Of a stretch of DNA of 64,000 nt, positions 3,069-54,452 are shown piece after piece. How positions within the stretch are numbered: the stretch's first letter is position 1; each line of letters starts with the position of its first letter. The position numbers and the translations under genes were made by a program. Below the pieces are notes generated by a model. It worked only from the letters and a program-made list of their open reading frames with translations. It was not told the DNA's origin and did not search any database. Source of the DNA: Nitrosopumilaceae archaeon. Its GTDB lineage: Archaea; Thermoproteota; Nitrososphaeria; Nitrososphaerales; Nitrosopumilaceae. The DNA lies in assembly GCA_965214835.1 (NCBI GenBank), contig CBDCCK010000002.1, forward strand, positions 1,248,001-1,312,000, given 5' to 3'.

Positions 3069-3155
3069 AAACGATCCATTTTCAACTGCACACACTAGGA
3101 GGTGATCTCGTACTTGTGATTTAGAATATTTATACAAGCTAGGCGGATCTCAACC

Positions 3156-14575: not shown

Positions 14576-17271
14576 CAGTAGTTGAAAATGTACCCCATAA
14601 ATCCGTCTAGCCGGGATCATGCCGCCGTCGCCCCACCCCGATCCTGTCGGCATCCGGCGCACGGAGGCAGCACGAATACAGAACCACGGCATACATCAGA
14701 GTCAGCAGCGCCATGACGCGGGTCTTTGGGTCTCCCGAGTGCCCTCATTGTCAGCCATATGTTGCATACTGCAAGCGACATGTAAAACAACAAGCACACG
14801 CAGGACAGGATTCCTGCTGGTGGTCCGCGGCCATGACGCTCTTGGCACAGCGGTATCCGGTCTCTATGCCCCACCTGTTCCGGTACTCTCTTGTCACATG
14901 GCAGAACAGCTGCCGATAGCTGCAGCAGCGCACCGTGGTCGCAAACACGTGGTATCTGTCAAAGACGTTCTTTGCCTTGGACTTGAGATCTTCTTGATGA
15001 CCGGAGCGTGCAAGCAGATGCGACTCAGATGCGCGTCTAGAGCAAAGCGACGATGATAAAAAAATTGATACTGAGATTATCAACTTGACGCGATCCCGGC
15101 TGCACGATGGCCCTCCTCTATTCCAGCTCATAGCGTCTTCAATTTTTGGTTTGATGAATGCAAACCCGGGTTCGTACTATTGCATCCATTACATGGTCGA
15201 TACAAGAACCCCCTGTCAATCTGGATGATGCTGCGCCTTGACCCGAGCCTGGGCGTAATGCCCATGATCGGCGCATTTTTTGAGCATATTACGCATCAGA
15301 TCGGCTCTGTTCCAATGTACATCTAGACCCCGTATATGCGTAAACGACTTTTAGCGGCGTTGCCCCCGGCAGTTCGGGCTATCAAAGGGCGGGTGCAACA
15401 GGAGCCTTTGGCGCACGCGTACGATGAACTCCATCGGAGTGAGATATCCAAGCGAGGAGTGTATTCTATCATTGTTTTCAGTCCCGGCCTGATTTATGAC
15501 GTCCGAGGCGTCCATTCCCTCAGCCAAGAGTAATGGGGCCACAGGTAGTCCCTCTTGATGCTTCCGAGCAGATACGACTGCTTAAGTGGCCGTTTTGTTC
15601 TGAGCAGTACTGTATGCTAGGAGAAGGTGCAGGATTCCCAGCTGTTTTAGGAGAAGGCCAGGGACAAAAAGAAGATGGAGTACTGAGAACCGTTGTCTGA
15701 TCGCAGAGGTCAGCATGCTGAAGTCCGGATCTGCAGGATACCGGATCGAGGAAGGCCTGAATCGCATTCTCCTTTTGCGCCGTGGTATCAGGAAGGAGTA
15801 TGGATGCCATCTACAGCGAAGAAGGCATCAGAGAGTACGTTGAAGACAGTAGCAGGCAGCCGTCCCGGCAGGAGTCCACGTATGTAATGTCTGCCTGCCA
15901 CAGCCGGTTGGGGGCATCTGGCCTTGTAAGCTTGCGCGAGGCCCGTATTATGTCGTTTTTGGTCTTTTTGGGCTCGATCCAGCCTATCTGGCGGTAGATT
16001 CGCTGTATCTTTTTGCGGTTTACGCGCACGCCAGTCTCGCGCAATATCTGGTTTGCCATCCTCCGGGTTCCATACGTCGGCCTTTTCTTGCCTATGGTAC
16101 GTATGATTGAGACCGTCCCAGAGTCGGCTTTTCTGGTCCGTCTGTCGACGTCCTTCCTGGCGTAATACCAGGTGCCCTTTGAGACGCCGCAGTATTTCAG
16201 GGCCGTGTTGAGGCCCATCTTCTGGTGGCAGATCTGTACGGCATTCATCCTTTGCTCAGCTCCATTGTTTTTTTTAAAGCGTCACAGGCCACTGCATACT
16301 CGCCTATGATGCGTTTGAGATTCTGGTTCTCCTTTTGCAGGGCAGCCGCTACCTTGTCATTCCGGCCCAGGATGGATGCCTTGCCGCCCTCGACGAACCT
16401 GTCCATCCACCTGCCAAACGTGGTGGGCGCGATGTTGTGCTTGCGGCACAGCTCGGCAGTGCTGATGCTGGTCTTGATGGACTCCATCACTATGTCTGTC
16501 TTTTCGGCCAATGTGAACTTTTGTTTTTTCATGCCCCGTATGCCCTCCTGTCATATACAAATTCTACGCATTTGGGTGGTTCGAATTTTATGGGGTCCTC
16601 ACCATTGTCGCCCTCGGTCACCATGCGGCAGGCCGTATGCACGTCGGCGCCGGCCTTGGATGTCAGCTTGCATGTCATGTACTGCTCATAGTTGATGGTG
16701 CCCCTGTCGCGCTTTGACTTTACCAGGTGCTTTATGTCGGTTTTCTTGTCGTATCTGGGCAGCTTGGTCTCGTCTATGGCAAGGACAGGCGCCTTGTGGC
16801 TCCTTTGGAGGGAGCAAAGCTGCCTGCCCACCGCCTCGGCGGCCGTGTAATGCAGCATTGCATCGCACCTTTTCTCCATCGTGGACAGTCTTGCGTGCCC
16901 CAGCTTTGCAAGAAGCCAGGCCGAGCTGGGCACCGCGGCCCCGGCGCCTTCTGATGCAAGAAGTGCAAGCTTTTGGGCGGTATAGTGCGCACATGCGGAA
17001 CGCTCCGACATGGATGCAATCAGGCGGGAGGCGTCTTCCAAGCCCCACATGGCGTTGTGTCTTGAGGAGAACTTGATTTTCAGCATGCCTACTGCGGTAA
17101 CCAAGAATTTAAATCCGGCCTCACCGTACCTTGTGTGGTGTTTCTGTTGGGTTTGGTTCATTATCAAGGTAGACAGGAACACCGCTGTTTATAGCTCGAT
17201 TGGTGAAAAAATCATGTCAACTTGTTCAAAACATTCAGACACTTAAAAAGGGGGTACATTTTCAACTACTG
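14576..17271 (-). mobile_element. ISH3-family element, transposase interrupted by IS3
   Basis: Perfect 21-bp TIR CAGTAGTTGAAAATGTACCCC, 5-bp TSD ATTTA; LAIDETKLPRYD and YRNRWGIETGYR motifs. Confidence 0.9.
15322..16601 (-). mobile_element. IS3-family element copy 1 (orfA 16245-16532, orfB from 16248; distal part garbled)
   Basis: Left end TGAGGACCCCATAAAATTCGAACC; HTH orfA; orfB YGTRR..WQADITY. Confidence 0.85.
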
Positions 17272-17601
17272 ATTTACTTTGCATGCACGGTAGACTTTCA
17301 ATCGGAATGTTTCGATCCGGTAGATTACGCATAAGGTCTAATCACTCCAGACAAAACGAAGAAATTTGTGTTGTCATTGTAGCTCACAGAGCCAGATTCG
17401 TCTACATACATAATCGGCATATGGTTATTGTCTTTGCACCCCTGTTATTAATGCCCAGATGCATACGGATCTGCAGACAGCCTAATCCGGATTGTGTCAA
17501 ACCTAGAGCCGTCTTATGGGGAACTTTTGGGAAGGCTGGCAACAGACTATTCAATCCGGATTGAAGATTTTCTTATTATGATGCAGTGTGCAGATGAGGC
17601 A

Positions 17602-52578: not shown

Positions 52579-52624
52579 GTATCGTCTCAACAATAGATAA
52601 ATTTGTCTTTATTGGCGTCTCCAT

Positions 52625-52709
52625 GCGGGAGTTGCCAAGCCTGGTCAAAGGCGCAGGGCTTAGGACCCTGTCTTTCAGGAGTTCGTGGGTTCGAATCCCA
52701 CCTCCCGCA
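52625..52709 (+). tRNA. tRNA-Leu(TAG)
   Basis: Cloverleaf, CAGGG-CTTAGGA-CCCTG, long variable arm. Confidence 0.93.
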
Positions 52710-53319
52710 TACATCAAACCCCAGTGGTTGAAAATGTACGCTTTATGTGCCACCTGTATGGTGGTACTTACATCCATCCGCGGCTCTGCACGTATGGAAT
52801 TCTGCATGCCAAGGCCCCATGAGACGGAGGCCACAAGGAACAGCAGTACACTTCATCCATGGTAAAAACCCCCGCCGGTAACACGGTGATGTTCCTTTCG
52901 TCTTCTGATCCGTGCCTAGGCCGGGCTGTGCTTTATAGCTAACGCTAGCAACACGCACGTACCATTGTGCGGGTGGTGGGGCAGGATGTGATCCTACGCC
53001 GTCCCTGCCAGCTCGGTTATCCTCTTGATCTTCTTTTTGTACAGGGCGTCGCTGCGCGACGAGGACAGAGTCTTTGTCGTCAGCATGGGCCAGATTATCC
53101 TGAGCATCTTGTTTGCAACATGCGTTATCGCTATGACGTGGATGTTGCCGTTCCTTTTGCGAACCCTCTCGTAGAACTCCTTCATCCTGTCGTCGTACTG
53201 TACGGCGACGTTGGCTATCTGGATCATCAGCCAGTTGATCCTGCGATTTGCATCCTTTTTCATGTGGCCGTGGTACTCGCGGTCACCCGACTGGTACACC
53301 CTTGGACACAGGCCGGCCC

Positions 53320-53431
53320 AGGACACAAGATGGTTCGGTGATGGAAACCGAGTTATGTCGCGAATTGCACAGAAGGCCTTTTTGTCGCCGTAGGACACAA
53401 GATGGTTCGGTGATGGAAACCGGGTTATGTC
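53320..53431. repeat. 40-bp direct repeat enclosing a 32-bp insert
   Basis: 53320-53359 vs 53392-53431, one mismatch. Confidence 0.9.
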
Positions 53432-53519
53432 CCCGATCTCTGCTAGCAGCAGCATTGCAGCAAACGAGTCTATCCCCGTCATGCTCAGCAGTATCCTGGC
53501 ATATTCGCTGAGTCCTGCC

Positions 53520-53630
53520 TGTCTTCCTATGTCCTCCCCTGCCTGGTCTATCTCCGCAAGCCATGCCTCGTACATCCTCAACACATCATCGATGTCTTCC
53601 TATGTCCTCCCCTACTTGGTCTATCTCTGC
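53520..53630. repeat. 38-bp direct repeat enclosing a 35-bp insert
   Basis: 53520-53557 vs 53593-53630, three mismatches. Confidence 0.85.
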
Positions 53631-54254
53631 TGTGACAGATGCAATACTCCTGGTGCAGCTTGCCAGTATTCTGTTGTCGTTTGGCATGTCCAGTTTTGTC
53701 TCGGAAAGCTTTCGTATGGCCTTCCTGGAGTACATCGTGGATGCGTCTATGGCTATGTCGTACTTGTCAAGCCAAGCTGTGCAGCCCGTTTACGACTGAG
53801 GTCCTGTCCTGTACAAGCCGTATCCTGTACCTCATCAGCTCCCTGACATCCCTCATGTCTGGAGGGGACACGTAGCAGCGCGGCATGATTCCGGCCCTGA
53901 GCGTTTCGGCTATCTTCCTTGCGTCTATGGGATCAGTCTTTACACTGGTCTCCGATATTATCTTCATCTTGAGGGTGTTTGCCAGCAGTATGGGGATGTG
54001 CTGCTCCTCGAATGCCCTGAATGTCTTTAGCCACATGTTACCCGTTGACTCGCATGCGGCCTGGCACTTTTTGTACTCTTTTTTCAGCCTTGCTGCAAGC
54101 TTTGCCTCCTTGTACGTGTTGTCATACGAGCCCTCCTCTAGCACGTGTCCTTTGGAATCCACAACGCACACCGCATTTTCTCTTTCCAATGTCTATTCCT
54201 ATGCTTTTCAATCCTTTTCTCTCAACCTCCTTCCGGATATGGTTTGATAGATCA

Positions 54255-54390
54255 GAAGCTGCAGTCATCCATCAGTGCGCGTAGCACAGGAACACAACAG
54301 CGCGGATATCCCCATTCAACTGAGTGCACAAAGCACATGAAAATGAAGGGGTTGATCCATCACCCGGACTACGGCGGGGGTGTTTTTATC
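54255..54390 (-). ncRNA. Predicted IS110 bridge RNA
   Basis: 5' hairpin plus two stem/internal-loop/hairpin modules whose loops match the target (CATTTTC, AGTTGA) and the donor junction (TGTGTTC, ATGGATGA). Confidence 0.8.
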
Positions 54391-54452
54391 ATGTGTTCAA
54401 CTACTAAACCTGGTTGAAGAATTAATAAGGCAATTTTGCAAACCATACCACG

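Follow-up and report, generated by a model that had tools for sequence, protein, structure and literature searches.

We analyzed a window of 64,000 nucleotides (nt) from the genome of a Nitrosopumilaceae archaeon and found in it, at 52854 to 54397 on the minus strand, a degenerate element of the IS110 group that lies within a terminal inverted repeat (TIR) of a MITE (miniature inverted-repeat transposable element). The window is positions 1248001 to 1312000 of contig C2 of the organism's own assembly (G000; 3.22 Mb in 2 contigs), which is the genome that we searched; unless another genome position is named, coordinates are those of the window. We consider it very probable that the element is a dead copy of an RNA-guided insertion sequence (IS) and that its lineage has been retuned to the ends of other transposons. 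Judged from covariation, RNA-guided targeting of transposon ends appears well supported. The genome has an archaeal small-subunit rRNA (1452.6 bits) and an archaeal AmoA (384.2 bits; 0 of 14 control genomes had a match), and because of these two matches we take the organism to be an ammonia-oxidizing archaeon.

The host MITE begins 11 nt 3′ of a tRNA-Leu gene with a tag anticodon (52624 to 52710, plus strand; found by ARAGORN and by Rfam RF00005 with 56.3 bits). It was recognized by its sequence, the match of its left TIR, and its relatives, and it now consists of two pieces, 52722 to 52855 and 54398 to 54406, with the IS110 element between them. Counted as 52722 to 52853, the core, and 54400 to 54406, the MITE is 141 bp long, and a 5-bp target duplication (AACCC on one side, AACCT on the other) flanks it. 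Its left TIR, CAGTGGTTGAAAATGTACGCT (52722 to 52742, plus strand; the start reads CAGTGGTTGAAAATGTAC), departs from the 21-nt consensus, CAGTAGTTGAAAATGTACCCC, by 3 mismatches. Of its right TIR, the outer 9 nt, CAACTACTA (54398 to 54406, plus strand; consensus, CAACTACTG), were placed by alignment of the junctions and hold one of the two CA cores; thus, the IS110 element splits the right TIR 9 nt from the tip. The body of the MITE has relatives with 72 to 78% identity at six other loci in the genome (530042, 633627, 1371228, 1753777, 2189361, and 3005042), and several of these have recognizable, unsplit right ends that resemble the TIR of the class 1 targets described below, e.g., GCACATTTTCAATTTACTG. 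An earlier note on this DNA had proposed a host of about 140 bp of the ISH3 type, and the length, the left TIR, the duplication, and the six relatives all agree with that proposal.

On the plus strand the two junctions read GTACACTT-CA-TCCATGG... and ...CATGTGTT-CA-ACTACTA. Removing the IS110 element in silico gives GTACACTTCAACTACTA, to be compared with the consensus TIR GTACATTTTCAACTACTG; as the earlier note had stated, excision restores a right TIR. The restored site differs from the consensus by one substitution and one absent base, also as claimed, and in addition by a terminal G-to-A change. A contig of run X5 spans the tRNA gene, the MITE, and the right end of the IS110 element, and the insertion is present there too. 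A contig of run X1 that matches 52771 to 52850 continues into TTTTCAACTACTG; this contig represents a paralogous or foreign copy of the MITE and does not show the window locus in an empty state.

The IS110 element is 1,544 bp long, including one copy of the core, as defined by BLAST comparison with its sister copies and by junction alignment. Its left end faces the tip of the TIR, and on the minus strand the core TG is at 52855-52854 and 54399-54398. Along the transposase strand its sequence begins with AACACATGATAAAAAC... and ends with ...ACCATGGA, and alignment of the ends of the copies places TG at both junctions. That the element belongs to the IS110 family, as the earlier note had said, is confirmed by Pfam matches to two pieces of its transposase gene, both on the minus strand. 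The N-terminal fragment (53767 to 54189; DEDD/RuvC-like; PF01548, 76 bits) ends at a stop that results from a 1-nt insertion, and the C-terminal fragment (52994 to 53584; PF02371, 97.8 bits) matches in two stretches owing to a duplication. There are two internal duplications, both visible as BLAST self-hits and both absent from the sister copies: one of 72 bp at 53320 to 53391 (the contigs of other copies skip from 53319 to 53392) and one of 73 bp at 53556 to 53628 (the contigs of other copies join 53555 to 53629). With a frameshift, two duplications, a guide that lacks 2 nt, and a decayed site, this copy is dead.

The earlier note had placed the crossover at a TC core, which did not hold up. 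In the window the core is ambiguous because the two junctions have 4 nt, TTCA, in common, so that TC, CA, and TT are each formally possible. However, the eight full-length copies of class 2 (..GTTG/AACAC and ..GGATG/CATAAC, where the slash marks the junction), the copies of class 4, and those of two related genomes (G004 and G010, described below) share TG only. TC was rejected because the class 2 and class 4 copies share TG alone; the transposase strand thus has the core TG and the plus strand has CA. Each junction has TG in every class, and the same holds for G004 and G010; a short core at either junction, with neither TIRs nor a target duplication, is typical of the IS110 group. The left end, about 210 nt, is longer than the right end, about 140 nt, and the only inverted repeats are a short subterminal pair of the type GGGGGTxTTTTAxC. 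As far as sequence can tell, the architecture agrees with the IS110 group in every feature that defines it.

A predicted bridge RNA occupies 54246 to 54361 on the minus strand. In the fold of an intact sister copy, the left end forms an outer stem around two stem-loops, each with a large internal loop and with capping hairpins like UGUGC-UUCG-GCGCA; RNAalifold gave the same architecture from 22 sequences of 7 genomes, and both capping hairpins have compensatory changes (UA, CG, GC, AU). The 5′ guide of the target-binding loop, TTCATTTTCA (54338 to 54347, minus strand), is complementary to the core plus the right half of the target, TGAAAATGAA. The 3′ guide, CTCAGTTG (54317 to 54324, minus strand), runs in the sense of the left target half, ..AGTTG, and has lost 2 nt relative to CTCGTAGTTG of the intact copy; the arm reads ..GTAGTTG followed by a constant AAUG and agrees in sense with the left flank and the core. 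In the donor-binding loop the 5′ guide, TGTGTTCC (54289 to 54296, minus strand), was assigned from sequence and fold as complementary to the start of the left end; here UGUGUUC pairs with GAACACA. The 3′ guide, CTGATGGATGA (54265 to 54275, minus strand), has the sense of the right-end terminus, ..ATGGATG, and AUGGAUGAA in this loop repeats the right-end terminus joined to the start of the left end. The donor arms fit the right-end terminus and the left-end start in every class, and they change together with them in class 4 and in G004.

Together, the two target guides of the window copy (arms 54347-54338 and 54324-54317) spell AGTTGAAAATG, which is CATTTTCAACT on the plus strand. This sequence is found exactly at three places in the window, 3077-3087 (+), 14580-14590 (−), and 17257-17267 (+); allowing at most one mismatch gives 7 matches versus 1.36 expected. 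The sites at 14580 and 17257 are in the two TIRs of an ISH3-like copy at 14577 to 17272. The earlier note was therefore right that the guides spell a sequence of ISH3-type TIRs and right about the exact copies in both TIRs near 14576 and 17251 and at 3077-3087, but no TIR was recognizable around the copy at 3077-3087. Immediately upstream of that copy is ctaattcgtgcctgactg..ggtggcctcgt, another dispersed repeat, which is also found to the left of the IS110 copy at C2:1098262.

According to the mechanism that we propose, the element inserted by bridge-RNA-guided recombination at the TG core, 9 nt inside the right TIR of the MITE. An RNA of about 115 nt would be transcribed from the left end. 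Its target loop would read both strands of AGTAGTTG/AAAATG, with the 5′ arm pairing with the core and the right half and the 3′ arm, of the same sense, corresponding to the left half and the core. The donor loop would read the element's own joined ends, ..ATGGATG/AACACA.., in a putative circular intermediate, and a 378-amino-acid (aa) transposase, such as that of the intact sister copy, would carry out the recombination. The lineage very probably lives on the ends of other transposons and has been retuned at least four times in this genome.

An A/T-rich box is conserved at positions 8 to 15 of the left end in all copies (about 54390 to 54382 in the window, minus strand), some 25 to 30 nt 5′ of the first bridge RNA stem. 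Its sequence is GATAAAAAC in the window, GGAAAAAC in G010, and GATAACC in G004; one possible role is that of an archaeal TATA box from which the guide RNA is transcribed.

A left-end profile used with nhmmer collected 30 left ends in the genome, and by their loops these fell into four classes. Class 1 has four copies, including the window copy, with the guides TGAAAATGAA and CGTAGTTG, the first being the 5′ arm in reverse complement. Its target is CAGTAGTTG/AAAATGTACCCC, found in ISH3-like ISs and MITEs; the copies abut CAGTAGTTG, the tip of the TIR, and two full-length copies other than that of the window, plus two fragments, adjoin this sequence exactly. Class 2 has 11 copies and 4 variants, 8 of them full length, with the guides TGCATAACGA and ACCTGTTG; the flanks, TAGCCTGTTG/CATAACC, are the TIR of an IS5-family IS and of 80-bp MITEs. 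The DNA of classes 1 and 2 is 88 to 90% identical. Class 3 has two copies and a variant, all without transposase, and its guides (TGTCGCGTAA and GAGGTTG) are aimed at the GGGGTTGTCGCCTAATTC MITE, an element of about 125 bp whose TIR supplies the target GGGGTTG/TCGCCTAATTC. Class 4, which is 67% identical to the other classes, has four copies plus one truncated copy with the guides TGGGAAGACA and GACTTCTG; its target, TACTTCTG/GGAAGACTG, is the TIR of a MITE of about 119 bp.

Within a class the position of insertion is fixed: after nt 9 of the TIR in class 1 (5 loci) and after nt 10 in class 2 (8 full-length loci and several smaller ones). Orientation is fixed as well, the left end facing the tip in classes 1 to 3 and the right end facing it in class 4. 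The outer flanks of the eight full-length class 2 copies are unrelated from locus to locus, and among these copies each end of the IS5-family IS and each end of the 80-bp MITE is occupied; because there are eight different outer flanks and four TIR contexts, these copies are independent insertions. When the guides of each complete element were scored against the flanks of all of them, the table was block-diagonal: for 11 of the 17 elements, guides fitted flanks of their own class at 9 to 12 of the 15 non-core positions, and between classes the fit was 1 to 8 positions. The 13-mer predicted as the class 1 target has 23 exact sites in the genome versus 0.10 expected, and all 23 are at the tips of ISH3-like TIRs. 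The class 4 14-mer has 57 sites, and the class 3 consensus 13-mer has 87. The central claim of the earlier note, that this IS110 element is aimed at ISH3-type TIRs, is thus supported by the class 1 sites, and its sister copies carry guides for three further families.

The earlier note had proposed to examine the flanks of the other copies, expecting TIRs and not unrelated sequence, and the outcome favored its reading. For 24 of the 30 left ends the left flank has no more than 2 mismatches to one or another of the four TIR half-sites, compared with 1,062 of 200,000 random 9-mers and 678 of 14,345 random 9-mers ending in TG. Not all of the evidence points in the same direction, and the following observations weigh against our explanation. 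Both the classes and the half-sites were defined afterwards from these same copies, and therefore this enrichment is descriptive. The other 6 left ends are more than 2 mismatches from all four half-sites. The window copy alone makes a weak case, and its sister copies carry the argument: its guides fit its own decayed site at only 6 of the 15 non-core positions, although they fit the site of the intact copy at 10 of 15, and the guides of the intact copy fit that site at 12 of 15. Among the contigs of runs X1, X2, X5, and X7 there was no empty-site allele of the window locus. A search of the entire window with Rfam 15 at the gathering threshold returned four tRNAs only and no bridge RNA, a class for which Rfam may lack a model; at an E value of ≤10 the region 54150 to 54420 gave a single chance match, to a long noncoding RNA.

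Some sister copies also fit poorly. A transposase-less copy at genome position 655669 has class 2-like guides beside a class 1 half-site, and another, at 3124519, has a guide-flank score of 3 of 15. Mixed flanks were found at 1519218 (C2 1517777-1519218), 639992 (639992-640363), and 3124519 (3124154-3124519), the left flank coming from an ISH3-like or an IS5 TIR and the right flank from the class 3 MITE (..TCGCCTAATTC). Such flanks suggest that IS110 copies located at different sites have recombined with each other and so rearranged the genome. The right flank of the copy at 2665852 had no match. Such ill-fitting copies are to be expected either if an element was mobilized by the RNA of another copy, or if copies recombined with each other, or if they decayed. 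Finally, none of the 23 perfect class 1 sites is occupied, and current activity is doubtful because all of these sites are empty and there is only one open frame among the full-length copies.

We considered three other explanations for the structure at the window locus. The IS110 element may already have been in the MITE when a composite of 1.7 kb was moved here by an ISH3-like transposase acting on the outer TIR tips. The 5-bp duplication, AACCC and AACCT, does bracket the entire composite, and because it does, the order of the two events is unreadable at this locus. Nevertheless, the split right TIR leaves only 9 of about 21 nt contiguous at that end, and no second IS110-bearing copy of the MITE body was found in the genome, the six relatives all being without an IS110 element. 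We regard such a move as improbable, and, even if it took place, it shifts the RNA-guided insertion to an earlier locus. A second alternative is that the site is chosen by protein-DNA recognition, or by attraction to DDE transposases or their transposition intermediates, with the complementarity of the loops secondary or coincidental. Classes 1 to 3 do all cut after GTTG, and the TG core is common to all classes; because of this common part, the constant part of the site could be read either by a protein or by the constant AAUG of the RNA. But both variable arms change together with both half-sites across the four classes and two other genomes, and in class 4 and in G004, which lack GTTG, the 3′ arm has changed to match. 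Passages of two papers (PMC11208160 and PMC11187229), moreover, describe experimental demonstration of RNA guidance for the family. We give this alternative very little credence.

The least credible explanation, to which we assign almost no weight, is that the resemblance of the window flanks to a TIR is accidental and that the copy is in unrelated sequence. The fit of the guides at the window is indeed poor when each half is taken separately (5 of 10 for the right half of the target, 5 of 9 for the left), but an inverted and complete left TIR lies 132 nt away, the body between the TIRs is homologous to that of six other MITE copies, and the duplication brackets the unit. In addition, the two other full-length class 1 copies and the two fragments abut CAGTAGTTG exactly. 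We return to RNA-guided insertion into a transposon end as the best explanation. It is possible, although less likely than not, that the IS110 lineage is a specialized hyperparasite of DDE transposons in this family of ammonia-oxidizing archaea, surviving because roughly 15 nt of the bridge RNA are rewritten again and again as one IS or MITE family after another multiplies.

In addition to many shorter pieces, BLAST identified 11 full-length relatives in the genome, the window copy included, of 1,409 to 1,543 bp. The copies are 88 to 91% identical over the left end and the N-terminal half of the transposase gene, and most are 82 to 84% identical over the right-end part. Only one of the 11 aligned full-length copies (1 of 12 if the truncated copy at 1081014-1081848 is counted) has an open transposase frame; this is the intact sister copy, at G000:C2:513238-514646, with a frame of 378 aa. 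Its product matches NF033542, "IS110 family RNA-guided transposase," with 234 bits (cutoff, 140), PF01548 with 103.9 bits, and PF02371 with 85.8 bits, and it matches the solved transposases of ISCro4 (9t56; E = 4e-9) and IS621 (8wt6; E = 9e-9). The motifs IGIDxxK, KTDxxDA, and xSG align with the solved transposases, and the motifs that bear the D, E, D, and D residues align with those of ISCro4. YQSGD of the sister transposase aligns with YESGS of ISCro4, and the serine of this motif is presumably the catalytic one. By sequence comparison the protein is a clear, though distant, homologue of the ISCro4 and IS621 transposases.

Ten of the 11 aligned full-length copies, among them that of the window and every one of the 8 in class 2, have the same 1-nt insertion (at about 53795 in the window, minus strand). 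It reads AGCTTGGCTTGA, versus AGCTTGCTTGAC in the intact copy, and splits the transposase into parts of 162 to 169 aa and 216 aa. Either these copies spread after the frameshift with transposase supplied in trans, or the frameshift was distributed by gene conversion, or the frame is restored by recoding. Four derivatives of 366 to 372 bp have no transposase and consist of a left end with the full bridge RNA joined to a right end (G000:C2 639992-640363, 2139580-2139947, 2955616-2955985, and 3124154-3124519); there are also several one-ended fragments. In two of these four derivatives the guides do not fit the flanks. The guide module may thus be able to move by itself. Class 3 guides were found on transposase-less elements only, and because of this, the intact transposase may serve differently aimed guide cassettes in trans.

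IS110 elements occupy MITEs, solo ends, or truncated IS5 copies; none was found in the seven intact ISH3-like copies or in the two intact IS5 copies. This is compatible with insertion disabling the host transposon, as the earlier note had suggested, and equally with old insertions in old elements. An insertion may harm the host, and, because each one splits a terminal repeat, the lineage might limit the expansion of ISs in IS-rich genomes.

We searched 40 related genomes with the intact transposase at a threshold of E ≤ 1e-20. Nine had matches: all 4 genomes of the same genus, 4 of 20 further members of the family, and 1 of 16 from the order's other families. A pattern search for the intact transposase in genome contigs gave 80 pattern matches, none of which was confirmed. 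G010, a genome of another genus whose transposase is 60% identical in amino acids, has three full copies with the same scaffold and different guides. The guides of two of these match GATTCATTTG/GTTATGCC in an 85-bp MITE with 9-bp duplications, and there are four empty sites. In G004, of the same genus but 49% identical, four copies match (T)ACGTCGTG/CCTA followed by A or G; this target lies 15 to 18 nt inside the tip of a repeated element and has 13 sites within 3 mismatches. In a third genome, G002, a left end with class 1 guides adjoins GGTAGCTG. Two of the three G010 copies (L041, at about C1 1328210, and L058, at about 1542300) have lost AACACAT, with which the left end otherwise begins, and have target-like sequence, ..GATTCATTTG/GAAAAAC, in place of these 7 nt. 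Apparently the crossover took place at the second TG, which is inside the left end (AACACATG).

The targeting of TIRs by elements of this kind is known from bacteria. In Pseudomonas putida H, IS1383, an IS110-family element, reportedly uses the inverted repeats of IS1384 as insertion sites (Muller et al. 2001). It resembles the elements described here in that an IS110-family element targets the TIR of another IS, but it comes from a bacterium and has a single specificity, whereas the ammonia-oxidizing archaeon studied here has four guide classes directed at four IS or MITE families. IS4321 and IS5075 are said to insert into the terminal repeats of Tn21-family transposons. Likewise elements with a DEDD transposase, they insert into a transposon's terminal repeat with specificity for site and orientation; however, they belong to the IS1111 group, which has long subterminal inverted repeats and a guide RNA in the right end, whereas the elements here have the layout of the IS110 group, in which the left end is long, the RNA is encoded upstream of the transposase, and long subterminal repeats are absent. 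Full-text searches, judged by title and abstract, revealed no published archaeal IS110 element in the terminal repeat of another element, although supplementary tables may list such cases. These results agree with the earlier note, which had cited IS4321 and IS5075 and knew of no archaeal case with ISH3. The IS110 element of the window is an archaeal case of a TIR targeting known from bacteria, and guide reprogramming as such is already published.

The family habit of targeting dispersed repeats is mentioned in passages of PMC11208160, where repetitive extragenic palindromic (REP) elements are named as typical targets of the IS110 family, and the two-loop layout of IS110-group bridge RNAs is described in passages of PMC11208160 and PMC11187229. 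The RNA of IS621 of E. coli, as presented in parts of PMC11208160, is like that predicted here in having two loops in a left-end RNA, each with one complementary and one same-sense arm. Further likenesses to IS621 are a 2-nt core, a short dispersed repeat as the target, and a homologous recombinase (E = 9e-9). The targets of IS621 are reportedly REP elements and its core CT. In contrast, the core here is TG, the targets are transposon ends, the protein similarity is distant, and an archaeal promoter would be needed.

A natural redirection between two close relatives, ISEc11 and ISXne4, is described in passages of PMC11187229. There, as here, the scaffold is retained and the stretches that match the target differ in accordance with the flanks, but those are two elements in different bacteria, and here four specificities plus variants are found in one genome. 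In the passages concerned, a catalogue of 662 archaeal IS110 recombinases (10.1101/2024.06.21.599552) and a survey of archaeal ISs (PMC13343696) do not discuss IS110 targets. What the present genome adds is a four-way natural series of reprogramming, together with guide-only derivatives. Bridge recombinases are being developed as programmable tools for genome editing, and the natural evolution of their specificity is known from few cases; this genome has a compact series of one scaffold with four specificities, intermediates, and transposase-less guide carriers. The elements with mismatched or chimeric flanks may record mobilization in trans and rearrangements mediated by IS110. The genome also shows that archaea, like bacteria, have elements that take the ends of other transposons as a safe landing site that multiplies itself. 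The intact sister transposase comes from a mesophilic archaeon and is directly testable, with no repair needed.

The full-length partner of the window MITE is 1,368 bp long and encodes a DDE transposase of 415 aa; it is present in seven near-identical copies with TIRs of 21 to 25 nt, and 5-bp duplications were found in 8 of the 9 copies examined. ISs of the ISH3 family are about 1.2 to 1.5 kb long and have TIRs and a target duplication of 4 to 5 bp, according to their ISfinder description, and in size, TIRs, and duplication length the element conforms to it. The best match of the transposase is NF033541 (E = 8e-31, 107.3 bits), followed by IS4 with 32 bits; it also matches PF01609, DDE_Tnp_1, with 28.2 (cutoff, 23). 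Thus, the assignment to ISH3 in the earlier note stands as the best family match, but the score is below the NCBIfam cutoff of 225, and because of this we call the element "ISH3-like." The copy in the window (14577 to 17272) has both 21-nt TIRs intact and unoccupied and so offers two perfect class 1 targets. It is 2,696 bp long instead of 1,368 and is interrupted at about 15312 to 16604 by an IS3-type element, with orfA at 16245 to 16532 (PF01527) and fragments of orfB at 15811 to 16248 (HTH_21) and 15351 to 15542.

The MITE load of the genome is very high. GGTTGTCGCCTAA, from the MITE of about 125 bp that is the class 3 target and has 9-bp duplications, has 87 exact copies, and ACTTCTGGGAAGAC, from the MITE of about 119 bp, has 57; there are 32 ISH3-type TIR sites within 3 mismatches and 43 IS5-type TIR sites within 2 mismatches. 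The abundant GGGGTTGTCGCCTAATTC end was considered as a one-ended element of the IS200/IS605 kind, but this was rejected because the end recurs in inverted orientation at a distance of about 125 bp and 9-bp duplications are present. The class 2 target IS, 1.3 to 1.5 kb long and accompanied by 80-bp MITEs, belongs to the IS5 family (NF033579, 166.7 bits; cutoff, 140). Its two intact copies, at G000:C2 189793-191188 and 2913908-2915411, differ in length by 108 bp; their transposases have 4 and 6 tandem units of 18 aa (KSIKKEEEQDCPDIVDTI), respectively, between the N- and C-terminal DDE parts.

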